64,000 nucleotides of DNA from a virus. Lineage: Duplodnaviria; Caudoviricetes. Under the pieces are notes generated by a model. It was not told where the DNA came from and ran no database searches. It worked only from the letters and a program-made list of their open reading frames with translations. Both the position numbers and the translations under genes were made by a program. Positions 7,973-52,947 of this stretch are shown here, in pieces. Location: positions 1 to 64,000 of IMG/VR virus record IMGVR_UViG_3300005512_000006. One strand, given 5' to 3'. The stretch's first letter is position 1. Each line of letters starts with the position of its first letter.

Positions 7973-8413
7973 TTAACCTTTTAACCAAATTATGGTTTCT
8001 GACTCTAACCATTCCTTTGCCAACATAGTATAGCAATTAAGAGACGAAATGTAAAGAAAATTATTTACCTTTTCTGGTTCTATCTCAGTGCAGACAAATA
8101 CTTGAGAGCGATTATACTTAAAAAACAATAAGGGCTCTTGTCCGCCATTTCGAGCTTGTTCGTCTAACTTGGTCCACCAGCGAATAAGATTGTTAGATTT
8201 GTTTGTAAAAATTTTATCTGTTAGGGGTGACTCAGCATAGTTCTTTACTTCGATACAAAAGCGGTTTTGCTCTCCGGGAACATAAATATCTCCCTTTAAA
8301 TATGAAAGAGCCCCCGAAGCGGGGACTCTCTCAAACTGCAAACCAGATGCTTCTCGAAGTAGGTCTCTTACTAAATATTCACCTCGACTACCTTTTGCTC
8401 TTGAATCTACCAT
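7973..8413 (-). CDS. Holliday-junction resolvase-like protein, T5 D14-like
   Basis: SRAKGSRGE, GDI, IEVK PD-(D/E)xK motif; T5 synteny. Confidence 0.85.
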   Translation of the reverse strand: MVDSRAKGSRGEYLVRDLLREASGLQFERVPASGALSYLKGDIYVPGEQNRFCIEVKNYAESPLTDKIFTNKSNNLIRWWTKLDEQARNGGQEPLLFFKYNRSQVFVCTEIEPEKVNNFLYISSLNCYTMLAKEWLESETIIWLKG

Positions 8414-10206
8414 TCTAACCTACTTTGATTGTCGTCTTTGACAACTTGAACTTTTGTGAGAAGAGGATGACTCCACTGGTGACTTACTAGATAAGTATTT
8501 AGAAACTCTTCTTTCAAAAGAACTTCTACTATCTTTTCTCGGCCTTGTTCATCCAAAACATTAATCACTTCGTCAAGAAAAAGAACGTTGATTTGTGACT
8601 TTGAAATACTACTCATAAGTTTGCGAATTGCAATCAGTGTAGCAGTATTTACTCTTGCTAGCTCTCCGCTAGAAAGAACACTAATGTCAACTTCTTTTCC
8701 ATTGTCAGTAATATTTACATTGAGCTTGTCGTTTGAAACTGCAAACTCGAGAGTAAATCTGCCATCAGAAAGCTCTGCCAAATACGTGTTTGTTAGCTCT
8801 TCCAGTTCTTTTACAAGATTCTCGATTTTATAGGCTAACAAGCCGTTCGTAGAGAATGCTTTCTTGAGAAGCTCCAGATGCATTGCTGTAGTTTCTACAC
8901 TCTCTAATTCTGACTGTGCTTTATTTAACTGACTCACAAACTCATCGGTCTGCTCTTGAATGACGGAAATACGAGTATTTAGCCTTTCTCGCTTTTGATT
9001 TTCGTCAATCAACTTTTTCAGTTTACTGCGAGCTTCTGTAATGTTTTGCTGAAGAGTGTCGTACTCCTCTTGTAGCTCGTCTGCATTGTAGAGTTCTATA
9101 GGCAGCGCGTGATCAATTGCAGAATACAGCTTTTCAAACTCGCTCTCTAGCTTTCTTTTCTTCTCAAAGAGTTCGTTATTTTCTTTAATCTCTTCTACAC
9201 GAGCGTAAATCTCTTTTGCCTGCTCTGTAAGTTGTGCAATTTTAGACTCTTGCTCTGAGACAATGTTCGACTTGAATTCTTCGTCGATTTCTTGTCCACA
9301 AGTGTAGCATTGATTACCTAGTTTCTTTGTTTTTTCAAGAACAGTTTCCGCAGCTTTTTTCTCTGCTCGAATCGCTCCAAGCTGGCTGGTTTCTTTCTCA
9401 TGAGATTGATACTCTGTAGCAGGTATCTTTGAAATCTCAGAGAAATTTAACTTAGAAAGCTGATCTTTATAGTGATTATTTCTCGAAATTATTTTATTGT
9501 TTTTGGAAATATTTTCAATTTTAGTCGAAAGACTACCGAGTAACTTCTCGTCTTCTTCCGTGTCGATAGAAATTTCGAGCAGAGGCTGTACCTCTGTAGT
9601 GCTCAATTTATTATCGTTTAACCACTTTTCAATGGTATTAATTTGCGAAGTCAAGCTAGTGACTTCGATGTTTACGTCTTTTGCCAGCTTTTTAAATACT
9701 TCAAAGTATTCAACATATTCTTCTAAGTTTAACAAATCAATCAGAAACTTTTTTCTATTTGTATCTGTTGCCGTTAGAAATTGAAGACTCGAGTTCGTAT
9801 TTTGATACACTAGCTGACTGAAAGTTTTGAAGTCAATACCAAGAACTTCTTGAATCGACTTGTAAGTATTTGTAGCTGTATGGGAAGAAATATCTTCTCC
9901 ATTCTTTAGAAACTTAACTTTAAGCGACGTCTTGCGATTTAAGTCAATTTCATACTCATCAGTATCTTTTGTAAAAGTTAGGTTAATTTTGTAACCTGCA
10001 TCTACATAGCGGTTTGGAACGTCTGCTTTCTTTACACCTTTTGAGTTTTTATTGTAAAGAACTTCTTCTAGTATAAGAGGAATTGACGACTTTCCAACAC
10101 CGTTTGTACCAACAATTTGAGTCAGTCCGCTCTCTTGAAGGTCCAGAACATTCTCTGGACCGTAAGAAAAGCAATTACTCCACGTTAACTTGTTTAGCGT
10201 AATCAC
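8407..10206 (-). CDS. SbcC/Rad50-like recombination ATPase, T5 D13-like
   Basis: Walker A GTNGVGKS, CYTC zinc hook, LSSGE signature, LFLDE; GTG start at 10206 after GGAG. Confidence 0.92.
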   Translation of the reverse strand: MITLNKLTWSNCFSYGPENVLDLQESGLTQIVGTNGVGKSSIPLILEEVLYNKNSKGVKKADVPNRYVDAGYKINLTFTKDTDEYEIDLNRKTSLKVKFLKNGEDISSHTATNTYKSIQEVLGIDFKTFSQLVYQNTNSSLQFLTATDTNRKKFLIDLLNLEEYVEYFEVFKKLAKDVNIEVTSLTSQINTIEKWLNDNKLSTTEVQPLLEISIDTEEDEKLLGSLSTKIENISKNNKIISRNNHYKDQLSKLNFSEISKIPATEYQSHEKETSQLGAIRAEKKAAETVLEKTKKLGNQCYTCGQEIDEEFKSNIVSEQESKIAQLTEQAKEIYARVEEIKENNELFEKKRKLESEFEKLYSAIDHALPIELYNADELQEEYDTLQQNITEARSKLKKLIDENQKRERLNTRISVIQEQTDEFVSQLNKAQSELESVETTAMHLELLKKAFSTNGLLAYKIENLVKELEELTNTYLAELSDGRFTLEFAVSNDKLNVNITDNGKEVDISVLSSGELARVNTATLIAIRKLMSSISKSQINVLFLDEVINVLDEQGREKIVEVLLKEEFLNTYLVSHQWSHPLLTKVQVVKDDNQSRLEW

Positions 10207-21070: not shown

Positions 21071-21796
21071 TTAGCCAGCGGCTTTTGCTTTCCGTGCAGC
21101 GCCGTCGTAATCTGCGACAGCAACACCACGACGCGTAAGCATCGTCTTGACACCGCGAGCCGTCTTGCCGAGGGCTTCTGCGATCTCTTCAACAGTCATG
21201 CCGGACACATCACCGAGCTGCTCGAAGGCATCGACTTTAGCGCCGCCCTTCGTTTCGCGCTGACGCGGAATGGCATCGATTTGACCAGCGCGCATGAGGC
21301 TCAGAGCCTTACCACGCACAGAGGCAATCGGACGGTCAAACTCTGCTGCCAGGTCTTCGATGAAAGCACCGTCATTGCAAAGCTGAACGAAGCGAACTTC
21401 TTGGTCTTCGCTATAGGTGCGAGGCGTCTCGACCTTCGGAGTCGGACGCACGTGCGAGGTCAGTTCCATCGAAAGAATCTTACCTTGCACTTGCTTGGGG
21501 GTGAAGCCTTGGCCGAGTTGCTCAGCAATCTCTGCGTAGGTCAGGGCACCGCTGTTTTCTTCGACGATGAGGCGCAGATTAGCTGCTTGCTCTTCCGTGA
21601 ACTTGGAACCACCAGCGGCGGATGCAAGCTCAACGTCAAAGCCCATCTTACGAAGTTTGCTGGACACAGAACGTGCAGAGGTTTCAAACCGATCTGCCGC
21701 GTCTGCGACCGTTGCTTGAGACACGGGGGTCTCGTCACCCACGAATGCGGTCAGTTCGTCAGTCCGCTCGTCGGTCCACTTGGGAAGTGCTGCCAT
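21071..21796 (-). CDS. DNA-binding protein, T5 D5-like
   Basis: Repeated HTH modules; KWTDERT, RSVSSKLRKMG, RGVKTMLTRRG. Confidence 0.85.
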   Translation of the reverse strand: MAALPKWTDERTDELTAFVGDETPVSQATVADAADRFETSARSVSSKLRKMGFDVELASAAGGSKFTEEQAANLRLIVEENSGALTYAEIAEQLGQGFTPKQVQGKILSMELTSHVRPTPKVETPRTYSEDQEVRFVQLCNDGAFIEDLAAEFDRPIASVRGKALSLMRAGQIDAIPRQRETKGGAKVDAFEQLGDVSGMTVEEIAEALGKTARGVKTMLTRRGVAVADYDGAARKAKAAG

Positions 21797-22551
21797 TATA
21801 AATCTCCTAGAAATTCAGATAAATTAGTTACTATAGTTACGCCAGTTTCTCTGGCTTTTTGGGTTTTGGAAGACTCGATTCCGCTTTCATTTACAAGAAT
21901 TGTTACGTCCTTCGTAATCGTGGACTTAACCTCGAAACCAGCATTTGTAAGTGCCTCTGTGGCTATAGCTTTTGTTTTATAACTTGTTAGCTTTCCAGAG
22001 ATACACACTACTCCGCGAGTTTTAGGTTTTACTTTCTTCGCAAAGCGAAAATCGAAGGGCAAAGAGCCGTCATAAAAACTATAAAAGTCTTTACGAAGCC
22101 AAGTCAAAAGGTTTTCAGTCGCTTTTGGCCCTAGACCAGCTTGCTTGCAGACCTCTGTATTTAGGTCCCCAATACTTTCTGCAACCTGGGAAAGTTTTTC
22201 TGCTGCGGTATTCCCGATTAAAGGAATATTAAAAGCAGGGAGTAACACGTTAAGTGAAGAAGATTTTGAATTTTGAATCTCGCCGTAAAGTTTTTCAGCG
22301 ATTTTCTCAGAGCCTAGTACGGCTTTCAATTCTTCTTCAGAAAGCGTGTAAATTTCGTCAATGTCGGTCAATTCGAGCTTAGCAATAGTAGAGGGTCCCA
22401 GTCCTTTGATTTTAAGAGTTTTAGCAAAATGTTCGATGGACTTTTGGACCTTGCTGGAACAAGCTGAATTCACACAGTAAAGTACGTCGTTGCGCCATTC
22501 CAAGGTGCTATCACAGCTAGGACAATTTGTCGGGGCTACGATGGCTTGCAT
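21796..22551 (-). CDS. NAD-dependent DNA ligase subunit B (Zn finger, HhH, BRCT)
   Basis: CPSC..CVNSAC, KGLGP, VTILVNESG..SSKTQKA; own promoter at 22585-22615. Confidence 0.9.
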   Translation of the reverse strand: MQAIVAPTNCPSCDSTLEWRNDVLYCVNSACSSKVQKSIEHFAKTLKIKGLGPSTIAKLELTDIDEIYTLSEEELKAVLGSEKIAEKLYGEIQNSKSSSLNVLLPAFNIPLIGNTAAEKLSQVAESIGDLNTEVCKQAGLGPKATENLLTWLRKDFYSFYDGSLPFDFRFAKKVKPKTRGVVCISGKLTSYKTKAIATEALTNAGFEVKSTITKDVTILVNESGIESSKTQKARETGVTIVTNLSEFLGDL

Positions 22552-22609
22552 GGGCTTGGCGCTCCTTTCACTGAATGAACATATATTATACGGAAAATGG
22601 GGGCGGCTG

Positions 22610-22978
22610 TCAAGATTTATTTTTTGGAATGTCCTTGAGTATTTTTGAGCCAATTTTGAAACACTCTGTATGGCCTCCAAACTTAAATTCTGGAGTGTGT
22701 CGATCTTCTTCATAATGAGCGTGTAAAAGCTGCTCTAATTTCCACACTTCATAAAGAGTGTTGTGATAAGTACGCTGGATTCGCAACTCATAGTTATTGA
22801 ATCCAAGAGAACGACGAATAACATCTTTCCAGTTCTTGCCTTTTGCAATTCCTACTTTGATGCACTCACGTCTCATTGTACGCTTATTAACTAAAATTAC
22901 TCCATATAGAACGCCCGGTTGATCTTTCTCTTCTGGGTGATTATCAAAGTACGTCTGATTATATACCCCACCAGCCAT
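22610..22978 (-). CDS. GIY-YIG/T5orf172-like protein inserted between the ligase halves
   Basis: GVLY...IKVGIAK...R...E...FGGHTECF. Confidence 0.6.
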   Translation of the reverse strand: MAGGVYNQTYFDNHPEEKDQPGVLYGVILVNKRTMRRECIKVGIAKGKNWKDVIRRSLGFNNYELRIQRTYHNTLYEVWKLEQLLHAHYEEDRHTPEFKFGGHTECFKIGSKILKDIPKNKS

Positions 22979-23083: not shown

Positions 23084-24004
23084 TCAATCAACCCGTCTCA
23101 CTACTCGAGGAATAATTTCCCCAGAGCGAATGACTTCTATTTGACATCCAATCTCGAGATTTAGCTCTCGAATGTAGCGCATATTGTGTAGTGTAGCCCT
23201 TGAGACGGTTGCGTCTCCGATTTTTACTGGAGCTAGCAGCCCTACAGGACTAACTACACCAGACTTACCTACTTGCCAGACCACATCTTCGAGAGTAGTA
23301 ACTACTCCCTCTTGTCGGGTCTTGACTGCGAAAGCTCCTCGGGGATGATGAGAAGTATATCCCATCTGAGAAAACTTTTCGTTATCATTTACGCGAACAA
23401 CTACCCCGTCCTGTGGGTAGTTATCGCACTCTGCGCTAATAACAGTTTCAAAACCGAAGGAGTGGAGTGCGCTCATGTCTCCCAGCCAAGTATCAAAGAT
23501 ACAAGGAGAGACCCCATAAGCGACAAAATCTACGTTCCGGGAATAGAATTCATCGAGACTCTTGAGGTTCAGAGCACCTGCTGCGTAATTTCTCGCATTC
23601 GGTATTTCTTTCGGAGCCACTACTTCTCCAGTAATCTGAAGAATTGGCTTATTCGTCTCGATAATTTCTGGAACCATTAGGTGCGGAACAAGATGTGTTA
23701 TATCTTGTCCACGCTTGCCATCACCGCGAGTAAGTGCTAACCGCAGAGTACCATTAATATAGGTGAGTGCAATTGCGGCACCGTCGAGTTTTGGAGTCTC
23801 GATACCGTCAAATGGTATAAGGTCTATTCCGTCGTATACTTTCTGGAGGGAATACATACGGAAGGCGTGCTCAACCCCGTCTTGAGTTGAGTAACCGACT
23901 TCTTCGTAACCGAATTGCTCGGCTAACGAATCGAACTCGGCATCCGATAAAATTGGATCGCCTTCGTAGTATTTTCGTGCGGCGTATGAAAGAAACGAGT
24001 GCAT
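23084..24004 (-). CDS. NAD-dependent DNA ligase subunit A (adenylation and OB domains)
   Basis: MYSLQK, KLDG, TRGDG, DGVVVR, RATLHN, RSGEIIP. Confidence 0.93.
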   Translation of the reverse strand: MHSFLSYAARKYYEGDPILSDAEFDSLAEQFGYEEVGYSTQDGVEHAFRMYSLQKVYDGIDLIPFDGIETPKLDGAAIALTYINGTLRLALTRGDGKRGQDITHLVPHLMVPEIIETNKPILQITGEVVAPKEIPNARNYAAGALNLKSLDEFYSRNVDFVAYGVSPCIFDTWLGDMSALHSFGFETVISAECDNYPQDGVVVRVNDNEKFSQMGYTSHHPRGAFAVKTRQEGVVTTLEDVVWQVGKSGVVSPVGLLAPVKIGDATVSRATLHNMRYIRELNLEIGCQIEVIRSGEIIPRVVRRVD

Positions 24005-46746: not shown

Positions 46747-47545
46747 CCTCTACGTCTCCCTCGTAAAACCCATCGAGAGTGTAGCGGTATTCCATAAATG
46801 CTTGAATGTCAGACTGCGAGTAGCCTTGTGCACGAAGAGCGGAAAGAGCATCCTCTTCGTTAGCATATGCACAAGCAAGATCGTAGCCGTCCATATAATA
46901 ATCACCAGTCATAGACATATTCAAAGTCCCACTGAAATGTGTCCTGGGAGTTATACTCACCGCCAAGAAAGAGTTCCCAGTATTCTTCCTCGACGTTATC
47001 TTCGCCTACAAGGTAGGCATAGGCCATAAATGCTTGCTGATATTCAGTAAAACTGATCGCAAGATTAACCCAAGCCTCGCTGTTTTTTACACTGTAGTCA
47101 TGCACAATATCAATCAACTCATTGAGTCTTTGTTGTGCTTGCTGCCCGTGCTTTTTAGCTGAGTTTGGAAACTTTATTATGTCGCCCACACTTATACTCC
47201 TGCGCGAAGAACATATTATCCCATAGCAGAGAAAAAATGTCAAGATTTATTTTTTGAACCTATAAAGAAAAAGGGTGGACAGTGCCACCCCTTTCACTAT
47301 ACTTTTTGTACTTTATTCGATAGCTTTTTTACTACCGAATCGTAGATTTCTTCGTAGAGCTCGGACATGTCGTCCTCGTCCCAGGCTTCGTCGATAGCAT
47401 CCACAATATCGCTTTTGGCAGCAAAAAGTCCCTGCTCCTTGAGATAGTCAACAATATCTTGAGTACAAACAGACACGAACACTTTCGTGTCGTGCCTGTT
47501 TTCCCAAGCGCCCAGTTCCGTCCACTTGGTGCTAGGAAGCATCAT
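46736..47545 (-). CDS. Small acidic hypothetical genes (46736-46918, 46902-~47190, 47297-47545)
   Basis: Coupled ORFs after promoters. Confidence 0.55.
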
Positions 47546-47859
47546 GCAACATCTCGCTGAATAGCAGCAGCCAGCTTCGTGAGGTCTGCTTTCGTAGCTT
47601 TTGCAAGAGAAGGCAGCTCAACTGCGAGTTTGTTTGCGATGAATGCCACAAGCTGCTCCTTACGAATCACAGGCTCGCCGGTCTTAGAAGTACGGGGCTG
47701 CGCCTGGTAAACGCCTTCGCGAGTGAGCTTGGCGATAATCGAACGAGCAGGCTTGTCGAACTCCTCTGCAATCGCGTCCACCGTCTCACGAGTAGGATTC
47801 GCGGTGTAAAGCTGGACCATACGCTCAACCATTTCTTCAGTGTACTTAACTTCGCTCAT
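47542..47859 (-). CDS. T5 A2-like DNA-binding protein
   Basis: KYTEE, RSIIAKLTREGVY, SKTGEPV.RKEQLV, SLAKATK. Confidence 0.7.
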   Translation of the reverse strand: MSEVKYTEEMVERMVQLYTANPTRETVDAIAEEFDKPARSIIAKLTREGVYQAQPRTSKTGEPVIRKEQLVAFIANKLAVELPSLAKATKADLTKLAAAIQRDVA

Positions 47860-48692: not shown

Positions 48693-49637
48693 TTACTCAC
48701 CATTCCACATTGCTTCCATTTCAGTCGGATCTACGGTATAACCGATAGCGTTCATGAAGTCAACCCATTTCATAAACACTTCTTTGTGAGTCTTGTCATC
48801 CATGTTAAACTTAAAGACGACTTTTTCATTTCCGTACTGGTATGTCCAAGTTATTCTCTGCTCAACCATATTCATCACTCCTTAGACAATCAGAGGCGCA
48901 TAGAAAATTTGATTCATATCAGCATCTTCGTCGGCCAACTCTTGCAGCACATTATCCCACTCATGTAGCGTGAAAACATTGAGATCATTCGTCTCTTGAT
49001 CAAAGAACATCATGTAGTTGGTGTTGCGCTCAACATGGAAAGCATCAGTAAACACTTCATCGCCATAGAACATCTCGACAACTTCAAAGTCGTACAACTG
49101 CTCAGCTACAATTTCATTCAGCTCGCCTGCATCAATCAGCGACTCACGATGCCGACGCACTTTCTCCGTCCATTCCATCGGCTGAAAGAAAGAGAACTGC
49201 GCGTCAGCTGCGTCAAACATTACTCGTACAATCATGCTTTTTCTCCAAATAACGAACTAACCGGGAAACTACCCTCTACACTATTTGCCCAACGGTCGAA
49301 ATCTTCAATAGGCTCGCTGCGATCAACTACGAATTCTTCCGCCCACCAACGCCACCGAAACAAACGCCCATCACATTCAGTGACATATGCCTCTCGCTCT
49401 AGGTTTCGAGGAACTTTGTGGCCTGCTCGTTTGAGCATAGTTTTAAGCTCACTCAAAGAGTAACCGTTTAACTGCTTTCGAGTAGGACGCTTCATTTTAC
49501 TTTCTCCACAAGCCACACCACATCTTTGGCATCAAACTTCATGAGCAGAATATAGCTTAGGGCTTGCTCTTTGGAGCAGCCGTCCTGAACCATACCGTAA
49601 TAAGCCGTTAGCATATCTAACTGGGCCTTCGTCATAA
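48693..49637 (-). CDS. Small early hypothetical genes (48693, 48882, 49232, 49492)
   Basis: RBS-led coupled ORFs downstream of the promoter at about 49666-49697. Confidence 0.6.
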
Positions 49638-49849
49638 TCTTCTCCGCTTTTCCAAAGTATGCGCATATTATACGCAAAGGAGTCTTTGGAGTCAAGATTT
49701 ATTTTCGGGGTATGTCGGAAGCAGAACGCACTGTATTTCGGGGGGCCACACACGACCTAAAATTGTCAAGAATTATTTGCAATTAAACTAAATTTTCAAA
49801 AATTATGTTGCCCCGCCCCGGCTTACCCCGAGACAACCGAAAATAAGCC

Positions 49850-49878
49850 TTGACAAACCTTGCCGGCCCGCGTATAAT
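49850..49878 (+). promoter_or_regulatory. Perfect sigma70 promoter with no clear downstream gene
   Basis: TTGACA-N17-TATAAT. Confidence 0.85.
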
Positions 49879-49983
49879 ATATGAAAATGGGGGAGAACGT
49901 GCGGTTCGGCGCAGGCGCGCAAATTTCAGTTAGCTTTCGCACTTTATTTGGCGCAGCTACGCTGCCCATTTTTGTAAAGCATA

Positions 49984-50012
49984 AAAAAGCCGGGGCAGTT
50001 GCCCCGGCTTGG
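49984..50012 (-). terminator. Terminator after the A2-like gene
   Basis: aaaaaagccggggc-agtt-gccccggctt. Confidence 0.85.
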
Positions 50013-50018
50013 TTCGGA

Positions 50019-50315
50019 CTACACGGCTGAGAGAAGGGCCTGTAGCGACTGCTTCGTAGCTTTCTCAAGCCCGGACAGGTTAGCGCCAACCTTCTCCGAA
50101 ATCTGCGCAACCAGGTCCTCCTTCGAGACAGCCGGACCGCCATTCTTGGACATACGAGCCTTGCGCTCATATTGAATGCCAGCACGAACTGCGGCAGCGA
50201 TAATAGCACGCGGCTTTTCACCAAACTGCTCAGCAAGTGCTTCTGCTTTTTCCAGGTTGAGAGGAGCTGCTGCCTGCATTGCTGCGAGTACTGCGTCGTC
50301 GAAACGAGATGCCAT
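50019..50315 (-). CDS. A2-like DNA-binding protein (close paralogue of 51404..51703)
   Basis: AEQFGEKPRAIIAAAVRAGIQYER, GLEKATK. Confidence 0.75.
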   Translation of the reverse strand: MASRFDDAVLAAMQAAAPLNLEKAEALAEQFGEKPRAIIAAAVRAGIQYERKARMSKNGGPAVSKEDLVAQISEKVGANLSGLEKATKQSLQALLSAV

Positions 50316-50488
50316 AATAGTTTTTCCTAGAGTCTCCGGGGATGCCCATTGCTTCCCCTATGTTTGAAAAGATATTATACGGAGGGCCGAGCAAAAAAGC
50401 AAGAAAAATTTTCGACCGTCTGTCGAGAGACATCGAAAGTTTTTCTTGACAACGCGCGTGCTTTCGTGGTACAATATAATGGGCTAGG

Positions 50489-50598
50489 TTTCGCACTTTG
50501 GTGCCTGCGGCACGTTTTTTAGGTTTATCACTTTCGCACTTTGGCGCGGAGCGCAAACTCAATAGATTGTTGACTTTGCACTTTGGCGCGAAGCGCGC
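50489..50598 (+). repeat. Three GCACTTTGG + mini-hairpin units at 43/42-bp spacing
   Basis: GCACTTTGG at 50493, 50536, 50578. Confidence 0.85.
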
Positions 50599-50610
50599 AT
50601 TTGATTGTCA

Positions 50611-50809
50611 AATGCAATAGTTGTTGAATGCAATAGTTGTTGAATGCAATAGTTGTTGAATGCAATAGTTGTTGAATGCAATAGTTGTTGAATGTAATAG
50701 TTGTTGAATGCAATAGTTGTTGAATGTAATAGTTGTTGAATGCAATAGTTGTTGAATGTAATAGTTGTTGAATGCAATAGTTGTTGAATGTAATAGTTGT
50801 TGAATGCAA
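50611..50809 (+). repeat. 16-bp tandem array AATG(C/T)AATAGTTGTTG, 12 full units plus a partial
   Basis: Counted directly; variant order CCCCCTCTCTCT. Confidence 0.97.
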
Positions 50810-50859
50810 CTAATTTGCGGAATGAGAATCATTCGCAAAAGACCGTTCGTCGGCTCGGG

Positions 50860-50934
50860 CTTGACTTTTGAAATTGGCATGGATATTGCAGGCCCCGCTC
50901 TTATGCAAGAACCGTGCCAATCTCAAAAGTCAAG
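50860..50934. promoter_or_regulatory. Inverted repeat carrying two facing sigma54 (-24/-12) motifs
   Basis: TTGGCATGGATATTGCA (+, 50874) and TTGGCACGGTTCTTGCA (-, 50904-50920); third copy CTGGCATGAAAATTGCT at 51152. Confidence 0.7.
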
Positions 50935-51403
50935 GATTATTTTGGAATAAGCATATAACAAAAAAGACTAAAAAACCTATTGACAGACCCCCGCCCGCTC
51001 GCGTAAAATCTCCCAAGAGGGGTGCGGGTAAAATTTTGGCGCGACCCCTGGTCGCTACCTTTATTATAGCAGCCCGCCCGCCCATTTGTCCAATTGTTTT
51101 TTTCTATCGAAAGGCCCGGACCCATTCAAATAATCAATTGGACAAACAGACCTGGCATGAAAATTGCTTGCGACCATTCGTCGGCTCGGCTTGACCTAGC
51201 TTCCGAAGTATGCTATTTTGGCGCGCGGCGAAGCCGCTATTTCCATTATAACATTTTTTGGTGCCGGGCTGTCAAGCAGTTTTTTTCGATGAAAAGCGCT
51301 TTTATCATCGAAAATTTCAATGATAAAAACCTTGCCTTTCTCGCTCTCGGGGGCCATAATGCTCGGGCAGTAAAGGAAAACGTTTCAATTAAGGAGTTTC
51401 AAT

Positions 51404-51703
51404 ATGGCTAGCAAGTTTGAAGGTGAGGTGATGGCTGCTATGGTAGCAGCTGCGCCCTTGGATATGGCGAAAGCTACGGCTATCGCCGAACAATTCGGGG
51501 AAAAGCCGCGTGCCATTATTGCTGCAGCAGTTCGCGCCGGTATTCAATACGAGCGCGCAGCAAAGCGTAGCAAGGACGGCTCGCCGGTTCAATCGAAGGA
51601 AGATATCGTGCGAGCCATTTCTGACAGGCTAGGCGTTAGCCTTCCCGGCTTGGAAAAGGCTACTAAAGAAAGCCTGGGAGCGCTTTTCAATGCGCTGGGA
51701 TAA
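51404..51703 (+). CDS. A2-like DNA-binding protein (pre-early candidate)
   Basis: AAGGAG RBS; TTGCCT..CATAAT promoter upstream; paralogue of 50019..50315. Confidence 0.78.
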   Translation: MASKFEGEVMAAMVAAAPLDMAKATAIAEQFGEKPRAIIAAAVRAGIQYERAAKRSKDGSPVQSKEDIVRAISDRLGVSLPGLEKATKESLGALFNALG

Positions 51704-51707
51704 CGTT

Positions 51708-51887
51708 ATGGGGTGGGTGGGCGCTTGCGCGCTCGCCCTCGCTCCCTACCATATGCCAGGGGTCAGGGGTTACTGGCTCGCTTGCGTAGGGCTCGCCCTA
51801 CTCACCACGCAAGCAGCCAGGCTCCGGGCTTGGAATTTGGTGGGCCTAAATATTGTTTCCATTGTTGGCTACTGGAGCCTAATATAA
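51708..51887 (+). CDS. Small membrane protein
   Basis: Hydrophobic; WNLVGLNIVSIVGY. Confidence 0.6.
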   Translation: MGWVGACALALAPYHMPGVRGYWLACVGLALLTTQAARLRAWNLVGLNIVSIVGYWSLI

Positions 51888-52330
51888 TGCTTATTTTTGA
51901 TTTAGATGGGACCGTGGTTTGCTCTCGCCATCGCCAGCTGGCGTGCCCCGATGGTTCCCTGGACCTAGACGCATGGCGCGAACATTCCACGCCGGAAAAA
52001 ATTGAGCAGGATTCGCTGCTTCCCCTGGCTCGCCTCATGCGCCATGCTCTCGCCACGGATAAGCAGGTGGCAATATGTACCGCTCGAGTTTTAGGTGATG
52101 CTGACAGGGCATACCTTCGCAAGCATGGCCTAGAAGCGCCAGTAATTCTGGCGCGCAGTGAAGGGGACAATCGTTCGGATGCAGAATTGAAGCGAGAAAA
52201 ACTGCTTTCCTTGGGAGTGGACCTGCGCGGCGTTACGTTCTATGATGACAATCACTCGGTTCTAGCAATGGCCCGAGAGTTGGGCATCAACGCCCTAGAT
52301 GCAACCTTAATAAATGAGGCTTTAAAATGA
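51887..52330 (+). CDS. HAD-family phosphatase (PNK-3'-phosphatase/nucleotidase-like)
   Basis: IFDLDGT, CTAR, D..LK, FYDDN. Confidence 0.82.
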   Translation: MLIFDLDGTVVCSRHRQLACPDGSLDLDAWREHSTPEKIEQDSLLPLARLMRHALATDKQVAICTARVLGDADRAYLRKHGLEAPVILARSEGDNRSDAELKREKLLSLGVDLRGVTFYDDNHSVLAMARELGINALDATLINEALK

Positions 52331-52947
52331 TTATCTGTTTAGTGGATACGGAAACAACCTCGGGGAATACTGTTGCCGATTTCGGAGCAGTAATTGCCGA
52401 TTTAAATTCCGGTGAAGTATTAGATGAAATTGGAACGCTTATATATAATCAGTTTGATAAAATGGAATTATGGTCCAATCCCCATTCTAAGCCTGGCGAG
52501 TTTTGGTCAATTCAAAATGTTAGGGCACGCCGTAAACATTATATGTCACGCATTGAATCCGGTTCGCGTTCTATTGCATCTAATCATTTAATTAATATTT
52601 GGTTATCTAAAAATGTGGGGCGCTATAATCCGGCAGTCACCGCATTTAATATCTCTTTTGATTATCCAAAGTGTATGGCGACAGATATTAATTTAGGATT
52701 ATTCAGAAAGCGTTTTTGTTTGCTTCAAAAGGCTCGCGCTTATTTTAGTAATGACGCGAATTATATTAAATATTGCCATGCTAATAATGCGTTAACTAAA
52801 ACGGGTAAGCCTAAAATGACCGCCGACAATGTAGCGCGCTATATTATAGGCGAACAATTAGAAGCGGAGCCGCATACAGCTTTGGAAGATGCGCGTGATT
52901 ATGAATTACCTATTGCGCAGTTTCTATATAATAAAGGCGCCTTATAA
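52327..52947 (+). CDS. DEDDh 3'-5' exonuclease
   Basis: VDTETT, AFNISFD, HTALEDA. Confidence 0.82.
   Translation: MIICLVDTETTSGNTVADFGAVIADLNSGEVLDEIGTLIYNQFDKMELWSNPHSKPGEFWSIQNVRARRKHYMSRIESGSRSIASNHLINIWLSKNVGRYNPAVTAFNISFDYPKCMATDINLGLFRKRFCLLQKARAYFSNDANYIKYCHANNALTKTGKPKMTADNVARYIIGEQLEAEPHTALEDARDYELPIAQFLYNKGAL

Follow-up and report, generated by a model that had tools for sequence, protein, structure and literature searches.

Three sequence elements of the sigma-54 -24/-12 type lie in a non-coding gap between two divergent gene blocks of an uncultured marine T5-like phage (IMG/VR record IMGVR_UViG_3300005512_000006, 98,214 bp). The stretch analysed, here called the window, comprises positions 1 to 64,000 of that record. 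With moderate confidence we consider the three sites to be genuine elements of the host sigma-54 (RpoN), and probably promoters that would be fired by a host activator and would feed two divergent early operons. An exact consensus, a fixed spacing, free spacer and flanking bases, and a distribution confined to the control regions of first genes would be hard to explain unless the sites are read by a host sigma-54.

Sigma-54-type sites in the window

Sites 1, 2 and 3 (Table 1) were picked out in a first-pass annotation of the window and were found exactly where it had placed them. In all three the GG and GC doublets are exactly 10 nt apart, within an element of the type TGGCAC-N5-TTGCW. Scored against the sigma-54 consensus, TGGCAYN5TTGCW, each is a perfect match, and the three matches in the 64-kb window compare with a mean of 0.07 in 100 dinucleotide-preserving shuffles, none of which reached three. 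When one mismatch was permitted there were 10 matches, with 3.9 expected; it is thus the three perfect sites that account for the excess. The stricter pattern YTGGCAYGN4TTGCW, whose leading pyrimidine and extra G belong to published sigma-54 consensus sequences, likewise matched three times, at the same sites, against a shuffle mean of 0.01. The whole 98,214-bp genome holds no further perfect motif outside these three sites. By string comparison site 3 resembles the other two in the sigma-54 blocks alone. Sites 1 and 2 duplicate one another, which reduces the three to approximately two independent occurrences.

All three sites are intergenic and each points toward a downstream gene. They lie within a 1.09-kb gap (50316-51403), to the left of which the genes run leftward and to the right of which they run rightward. 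The genes bordering it, L and R, are divergent paralogues (67% identity, E 1e-32), and the right-hand block includes a homologue of the T5 pre-early gene dmp, which leads us to read the gap as the central control region of a T5-style pre-early gene set. Upstream of gene R, site 3 stands at a distance of 236 nt and site 1 at 514 nt; for site 2 the distance to gene L is 589 nt, again upstream. The starts predicted for sites 1 and 2 (Table 1) were placed at the usual 11-12 nt after the GC doublet.

A palindrome with the 19-bp form AATGAGAA-N3-TTCTCATT stands upstream of site 1. The expression AATGA-N(1-11)-TCATT was matched 66 times in 1,009,117 bases of this and related sequence, and 15 of the matches (12 distinct palindromes) fall within 120 nt of a perfect sigma-54 motif, a zone that makes up just 0.83% of the sequence. 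In all 12 distinct cases the palindrome is on the -24 side of the nearest site, 26-56 nt away centre to centre. Since the palindrome of the window precedes site 1, we regard site 1 as the canonical site and site 2 as its facing partner. The palindrome is likely to be a protein-binding site that travels with the sigma-54 sites in relatives. Bending proteins and close-in enhancers sit at about this distance at other sigma-54 promoters. The SypG/LuxO enhancer motif, as quoted in PMC10162802, was considered for the palindrome and rejected, its half-sites being in the opposite order.

Conservation in cultured T5-like phages

Eight cultured Vibrio T5-like phages together hold 23 perfect motifs, against 2 for a reversed-pattern control. 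There are five in VCPH, four in Cilsick (two sites, each in both copies of the terminal repeat), four in phi 3 (two sites, repeated), three in pVp-1, two each in KIT04, Brizo and JSF10, and one in PVo5. These phages are related to one another, so the 23 matches perhaps amount to 8-10 independent sites. No perfect motif is present in T5 itself, where one-mismatch matches number 8 against 5 in the control, or in Yersinia phage phiR2-01. Every Vibrio-phage motif that was located falls either in the non-coding stretches around A2, A1 and dmp or within the annotated left terminal repeat, and the non-coding stretch is present in 61 phage records, 59 of which are Vibrio phages.

In an alignment of seven Vibrio phage regions the plus-strand site ATGGCAC...TTGC is kept in six. 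In phi 3 and JSF10 its spacer reads AGATA in place of GATTT, with further differences after the -12 block. In VCPH the plus-strand site is missing and the minus-strand site is kept, with the spacer TTTCC in place of GAACC; the minus-strand sites of pVp-1 and VCPH differ in the spacer only. Across the seven regions, then, in the kind of comparison that the first-pass annotation had called for, the blocks and the length of the spacer are kept while its bases drift. The identity of the elements as sigma-54 -24/-12 sites, which had been proposed from the window alone, is well supported by such comparison with relatives.

Region A of pVp-1 is a gap of 917 bp that occupies the place of the T5 injection stop. 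It has one site on each strand, separated by 247 bp and both directed inward, toward three DnaA-box sequences and LexA-box-like palindromes. The divergent gap before A2 in the same phage has a facing pair 6 nt apart; the counterpart in VCPH has two such pairs and a lone site. Consensus DnaA boxes (TTATCCACA) and nearly perfect palindromes of the LexA type (CTGTATATTTATACAG) adjoin the sigma-54 sites in several of the Vibrio phages (pVp-1 JQ340389.1 75900-76060 and 78480-78850; Cilsick 150-300; VCPH 116850-117550), in a non-coding stretch that is 95-99% identical across different phage genera. An exchange of a sigma-54 site for a sigma-70 promoter between Cilsick and region B of pVp-1 was considered and discarded, as the spacer of the pVp-1 sequence TTGACT...TATGCT is only 12 nt.

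Conservation in uncultured relatives

With a profile built from five dmp proteins, 80 viral loci totalling 868,851 bases were recovered; they contain 27 perfect motifs compared with 1 for the reversed pattern and 1 for a pattern with the two blocks swapped. A perfect motif is present in 10 of the 80 loci, two of which (L168 and L170) look like one phage, and many of the matches form tandem rows 26-29 nt apart (L152, L153, L164, L168, L182). The sites of L152, L153, L164, L171 and L182 point at the gene R/dmp operon. Homologues of gene L/R adjoin dmp in L152, L153, L164, L168, L171 and L186.

The closest relatives are L152 and L153, with dmp 58-61% and neighbouring proteins up to 86% identical. 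Their divergent gap begins with the palindrome AATGAGAATGAGTCTCATT, followed by two perfect sites and one imperfect site of the sigma-54 type, all rightward. After these come the 18-nt repeat D6 (described below) in reverse orientation, a sigma-70-like promoter, a small open reading frame (ORF), the gene R homologue and dmp. The order matches that of site 3, D6, the promoter at 51191, gene R and dmp in the window.

Among 20 distinct sites, positions left free by the search pattern also show a preference: G follows TGGCAY in 17 of the 20, and the bases before TTGC are T-rich, both of which agree with sigma-54 logos. The information in the flanks is near zero and the spacer length is fixed at 5 nt.

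Relatives by PolA numbered 47 loci, and five long contigs among them (G001-G005) were checked. One of the five has a perfect motif, which overlaps a start codon and was judged to be a chance match. These contigs contain no gene L, gene R or dmp, so the homologous region is not covered and they are uninformative either way; the strand-switch junction of G003 is a plain 230-bp sigma-70 region. A nucleotide search of a phage collection with 49500-52500 gave no match, single-protein scans of viral contigs with dmp and with gene R gave no relatives, and exact or relaxed DNA patterns for the arms, site 3 and the flanks gave either nothing or unrelated chance matches in viral contigs (L066, L067, L068).

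The facing pair

Sites 1 and 2 lie head to head in an inverted repeat with arms at 50860-50890 and 50904-50934, each 31 nt, 87% complementary, 13 nt apart and both starting with CTTGACTTTTGA, much as the first-pass annotation had described. In a survey of adjacent sites no more than 40 nt apart, at least one of them perfect, seven head-to-head rows were found. They correspond to six distinct pairs in five phages (the window, pVp-1, VCPH with two, L164 and L171), with gaps of 1 to 29 nt between the facing sites. The same survey returned one back-to-back row, with a weak partner, and 12 tandem rows. Summed over the six facing pairs, the two arms show differences at 13 of 30 positions in the spacer, at 9 of 12 Y/W positions and at 1 of 54 positions in the blocks. 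The way in which sites were selected accounts for part of the block identity, and the 13 spacer differences imply that what is kept is the blocks and not complementarity.

It had been suggested that two sites facing each other at this distance could hardly yield useful RNA and that a clamp, roadblock or sequestration role was likelier. The first of these statements we found to be unsupported: the right-hand operon lies ahead of site 1 and the left-hand operon ahead of site 2, and the same crossing arrangement recurs in pVp-1, VCPH, L164 and L171. The earlier interpretation is thus sustained as to the sigma-54 identity of the sites and not as to the uselessness of the facing layout for transcription.

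Natural variants

Variants were sought in four public runs (X2, X3, X4 and X19) from marine, estuary and aquatic samples, in which relatives are approximately 83-95% alike; the base changes below are those among the 40 of 153 differences that were listed. In contigs of X19 (29.7 kb) and X4, position 50837 or 50665 is joined to 50903, so that D6 copy 1 and the left arm with site 1 are missing and site 2 is kept. In one X2 contig 50853 is joined to 50999 and the whole inverted repeat is gone. The X3 contig retains both arms, and site 2 is retained in the contigs of X3, X4 and X19. The facing pair is therefore not indispensable. X19 is an RNA run whose contig spans the region, but the form of a contig says nothing about transcription or its starts.

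Right-arm changes listed for X3 and X4 are in the spacer (50910, 50912) and at 50921-50923, between TTGAC and TTGGCA; none of the differences listed for these two runs affects TGGCAC or TTGCA of site 2, and none listed for the four runs falls in 51120-51196, around site 3. This pattern, sparing the blocks of sites 2 and 3, is suggestive of constraint on the blocks. A near-identical metagenome contig, L063, differs from the window by two fewer 16-bp repeats (32 bp) in the tandem array at 50605 and by three base changes inside the repeats, and in nothing else, so the array varies in copy number between isolates. Besides L063, the same metagenome scan gave only two short, unrelated contigs.

Proposed function

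We propose a conserved module of marine T5-like phages in which a 19-bp palindrome would be followed by at least one -24/-12 element and then by a sigma-70 promoter, the whole sitting in the non-coding control region of pre-early genes (gene R, dmp, A2-like). The sites would act as enhancer-dependent promoters. A host activator is proposed as the trigger because the phage encodes none: no match to the enhancer-binding protein domain PF00158 was found at E<=1 in the whole phage genome, as had been noted for the window, whereas all 14 control genomes matched. Nor does the phage have a sigma-54 DNA-binding domain. Sites 1 and 3 would drive the right-hand operon and site 2 the left-hand operon, giving both operons a second route of entry, separate from sigma-70. 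The facing pair could then be a two-way promoter used by one polymerase at a time. Such a route might offer entry when sigma-70 transcription in the host is poor, or might report a host signal. E. coli sigma-54 transcripts with 5' leaders of 360-760 nt have been reported (PMC4591121). Working promoters are favoured because the sites point at operons, precede gene R and dmp in the closest relatives and have a fixed upstream site for a protein.

Several observations weigh against sites that fire. PF00158, absent from the present phage, was over the cut-off in none of five Vibrio phages (KIT04 gave one 14-bit match), no known activator site was recognised, and the presence of rpoN in the host is assumed. 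Holoenzyme cannot occupy at one time every member of a tandem row spaced at 26-29 nt or of a facing pair with a gap of 1-29 nt. Each operon already has a sigma-70-like promoter of its own, and in T5 genes of every class are reported to depend on sigma-70 (PMC7472727). Finally, the plus-strand site in region A of pVp-1 has no gene ahead of it, which fits docking of the holoenzyme better than a promoter.

Alternative explanations

That sigma-54 holoenzyme, or free sigma-54, docks at the sites and does not fire is a possibility which we retain tentatively. Stable closed complexes would then occlude or insulate adjacent sigma-70 promoters, hold the DNA that enters first, a role suggested for DnaA boxes in the T5 injection stop, or deplete the scarce sigma-54 of the host while phage DNA builds up. 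It stays alive because none of the phages examined encodes an activator, because rows and facing pairs are too close for joint use, and because the Vibrio sites have DnaA-box and LexA-box-like sequences as neighbours, in stretches that correspond to the injection stop signal (iss) and repeat regions of T5. The sites of the window also lie between tandem sigma-70-like promoters. Sigma-54 can repress by competition for overlapping promoter sites (PMC4551910), and Davison has proposed that a host protein bound at the T5 injection stop signal stops injection (bioRxiv 10.1101/866236). However, sigma-54 bound inside E. coli genes left the overlapping gene unaffected, 'effectively ruling out roadblock repression' (PMC4591121), and the natural variants drop site 1 or the whole pair. 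The sites of the closest relatives are consistently oriented toward operons, and the region of the window has neither DnaA nor LexA boxes. No A1 homologue was found (tblastn), and a link to injection cannot be placed on this genome, in whose record no terminal repeats were found. We found no positive evidence for a clamp, for occlusion or for sequestration.

In a more specific form of docking, rows and facing pairs of holoenzyme complexes formed without an activator, together with the protein on the palindrome, would make a static, host-built nucleoprotein mark on the first-entering DNA, and no ordinary promoter. Such a mark would serve to park the DNA or stop its injection, or else as a sink for sigma-54, and in function it would correspond to the DnaA-box signal that has been proposed for T5. 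We think this doubtful.

It is quite unlikely that the motif is the target of another factor, phage (for example the A2-like proteins) or host, and only coincidentally resembles a sigma-54 site. The constant neighbouring palindrome does imply that at least one further protein acts here, and the arms of sites 1 and 2 also keep CTTGACTTTTG, which is outside the sigma-54 consensus. However, the 20 distinct sites, in differing flanks, share only the sigma-54 positions and the 5-nt spacer length, and a dimeric protein would not tolerate facing gaps of 1 to 29 nt.

An explanation of the inverted repeat as a nucleic-acid structure (a two-way terminator, an RNase III hairpin or a cruciform), with the sigma-54 likeness incidental, is very improbable. 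As RNA the repeat has a predicted fold of -43.6 kcal/mol (z -4.68), sigma-70-like promoters read into it from both sides, and the only Rfam models returned, far below threshold, were of the hairpin-type microRNA class; no Rfam family reached threshold. Against this, neither arm is directly followed by the T-run of an intrinsic terminator, and neither site 3 nor the tandem arrays of relatives form hairpins. The spacers of the arms diverge and no compensatory change that would keep the stem was seen; by manual count, the changes listed for X3 reduce the complementarity of the arms from 27/31 to 24/31. The six facing pairs, too, keep their blocks rather than their spacers, within the limit on block identity given above. 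A sigma-70 reading of the arms, from TTGACT, was likewise rejected, there being no acceptable -10 at 16-18 nt. Chance is a negligible explanation: sites 1 and 2 are copies and so count for fewer than three events, but the excess over shuffles and over reversed or swapped controls is strong in this phage and in independent lineages.

Other features of the region

The record is rated complete by CheckV and classed as 'linear'. Its PHROG matches are of T5-type content: a split NAD ligase, an SbcCD-like nuclease, a DnaB-like helicase, PolA, D5-like DNA-binding proteins, ribonucleotide reductase and small terminase. The NAD-dependent DNA ligase is in two ORFs (21796-22713 and 23084-24004) with a 370-bp gap between them. 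There are two tRNA genes. PolA is approximately 45% identical to PolA of Demerecviridae Vibrio phages. The best bacterial matches of the phage peroxiredoxin are Ruegeria (63%) and then mixed taxa, which gives no host assignment.

Neither gene L nor gene R has a match in Pfam or PHROG. The dmp homologue is 41% identical to dmp of pVp-1 (E 5e-26) and matches the HAD_PNKP domain. In the ORF as listed, 57 N-terminal residues have no counterpart in an alignment with four dmp proteins; translation probably begins at the ATG at 51884, which would leave approximately 180 nt non-coding after gene R. An A2-like protein is encoded at 47542-47859 (30%, E 2e-5).

Table 1. Positions, in window coordinates, of the sigma-54-type sites and other features of the control region and its flanks.
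Feature	Position	Strand	Remarks
Site 1, sigma-54-type -24/-12 element TTGGCATGGATATTGCA	50874..50890	+	motif match; points right, predicted start near 50901
Site 2, full-consensus -24/-12 element TTGGCACGGTTCTTGCA	50904..50920	-	motif match; points left, predicted start near 50893
Site 3, -24/-12 element CTGGCATGAAAATTGCT	51152..51168	+	motif match; points right
Inverted repeat carrying sites 1 and 2 head to head	50860..50934		31-nt arms, 13-nt centre
Palindrome TTTGCGGAATGAGAATCATTCGCAAAA	50813..50839		upstream of site 1; core AATGAGAATCATT at 50821-50833
Sigma-70-like promoter TTGCTT-17-TATAAT, gene L	50374..50402	-	read by eye, not in scan list
Sigma-70-like promoter TTGACA-18-TAAAAT	50980..51009	+	promoter scan; faces promoter at 51063..51092
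Sigma-70-like promoter TGGACA-18-TATAAT	51063..51092	-	promoter scan; points left
Sigma-70-like promoter TTGACC-17-TATTTT	51191..51219	+	promoter scan; downstream of site 3 and D6
Sigma-70-like promoter TTGCCT-17-CATAAT, gene R	51332..51360	+	promoter scan
Repeat D6, copy 1 GACCGTTCGTCGGCTCGG	50841..50858	+	repeat search; followed by CTTGAC
Repeat D6, copy 2	51172..51189	+	directly 3' of site 3, directly 5' of sigma-70-like promoter
Approximately 12 tandem copies of 16-bp unit AATGCAATAGTTGTTG	50605..50812		alternating C/T variants
Three repeats (TTYGCACTTTGG...)	50485..50600	+	approximately 43 bp apart; short GC hairpin in each
Gene L, 98 amino acids	50019..50315	-	first gene of left-hand block
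Gene R, 99 amino acids	51404..51703	+	first gene of right-hand block
Homologue of T5 pre-early gene dmp (deoxynucleoside-5'-monophosphatase)	51713..52330	+	second gene on right

Several palindromes lie in the gap, as do at least six sigma-70-like promoters; two of these face each other (50980/51092), and one stands directly before each flanking gene. The stretches 50980-51103 and 51191-51286 are look-alike modules of a sigma-70-like promoter, 60-85 nt of GC-rich palindromic sequence and a run of seven Ts. They may encode small RNAs or leaders, had no Rfam match, and the first is overlapped by the opposing promoter at 51092. Mini-hairpins of the GCGAAGC type, GCGCGAAGCGCGC and GCGGCGAAGCCGC, are present at 50586-50598 and 51225-51237; the motif forms a DNA hairpin of unusual stability and has been reported at the origins of some phages.

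D6 is an 18-nt element, GACCRTTCGTCGGCTCGG, also present in L152 (7545-7562) and L153 (about 8398-8415). It lies between sigma-54 sites and the -35 hexamer of a sigma-70-like promoter, in either orientation, and has a small CCG/CGG hairpin inside. One X2 variant has D6 joined immediately to a TTGACA-17-TAAAAT promoter. The 16-bp array could be the iterons of an origin, and the cumulative GC skew turns near 50 kb. Direct repeats based on TTYGCAC occur in the non-coding regions with sigma-54 sites of the window, pVp-1 and KIT04: TTYGCACTTTGG three times in the window, and TTTGCACCTA about 10 times in pVp-1 (JQ340389.1 75380-75760). Motifs for DnaA, LexA (gamma and alpha types), IHF and CtrA, and TGCA-N9-TGCA, are absent from 50200-51500. 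Nor does that interval contain TTWTNCACA or a close variant, the paired DnaA boxes of a T5-type injection stop being thus missing.

Comparison with known systems

In our literature search, which had most subscription journals outside its scope, there was no account of sigma-54 sites in T5-like or Vibrio phages. The terms 'T5-like' and 'sigma54' occurred together in a single paper, which deals with rpoN mutants whose effect runs through RpoS and glutamine. T5 is the model of its family and is described as relying on sigma-70 throughout, and conserved sigma-54 sites in the first-gene control region of a marine branch would contrast with it. If the sites are what they appear to be, these phages either couple early infection to host signalling through an activator or use a non-firing sigma-54 complex outside transcription. 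Since the module is also present in several Vibrio phages in culture, either idea is open to direct test. The recurring facing pairs and the partner that would bind the palindrome are new material for those who study sigma-54.

The activator of glmY and glmZ in Enterobacteriaceae is GlrR, which acts from upstream sites. Like the operons here, these genes have a sigma-70 and a sigma-54 promoter for one transcription unit (PMC3045617). The two promoters overlap there, whereas the sigma-54 sites here are 20-60 nt upstream of a separate sigma-70 promoter.

The inactive or repressive sigma-54 sites of E. coli are similar in that a non-firing holoenzyme sits on a consensus sequence and can compete with sigma-70 promoters (PMC4591121, PMC4551910). 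They are single and mostly intragenic, and facing pairs and tandem rows do not figure in the passages that describe them.

The repeat regions and iss of T5 are also long non-coding pre-early stretches with direct and inverted repeats and sites for host proteins, and are conserved beyond the level of the adjacent genes (bioRxiv 10.1101/866236). The Vibrio phage counterparts of the iss have DnaA boxes beside the sigma-54 sites. In contrast, T5 and phiR2-01 lack a perfect sigma-54 motif, and the region of the window lacks a DnaA box.

In Pseudomonas phage YuA a transcription start has been mapped at a sigma-54-like promoter. The phage is lytic, has no RNA polymerase of its own, and its -24/-12 promoter is read by the host enzyme (bioRxiv 10.1101/2023.10.13.562163), as is proposed here. 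However, YuA is an unrelated siphovirus with one reported site, whereas the sites described here form clade-wide clusters, tandem rows and facing pairs, with a fixed partner palindrome and in a pre-early control region.

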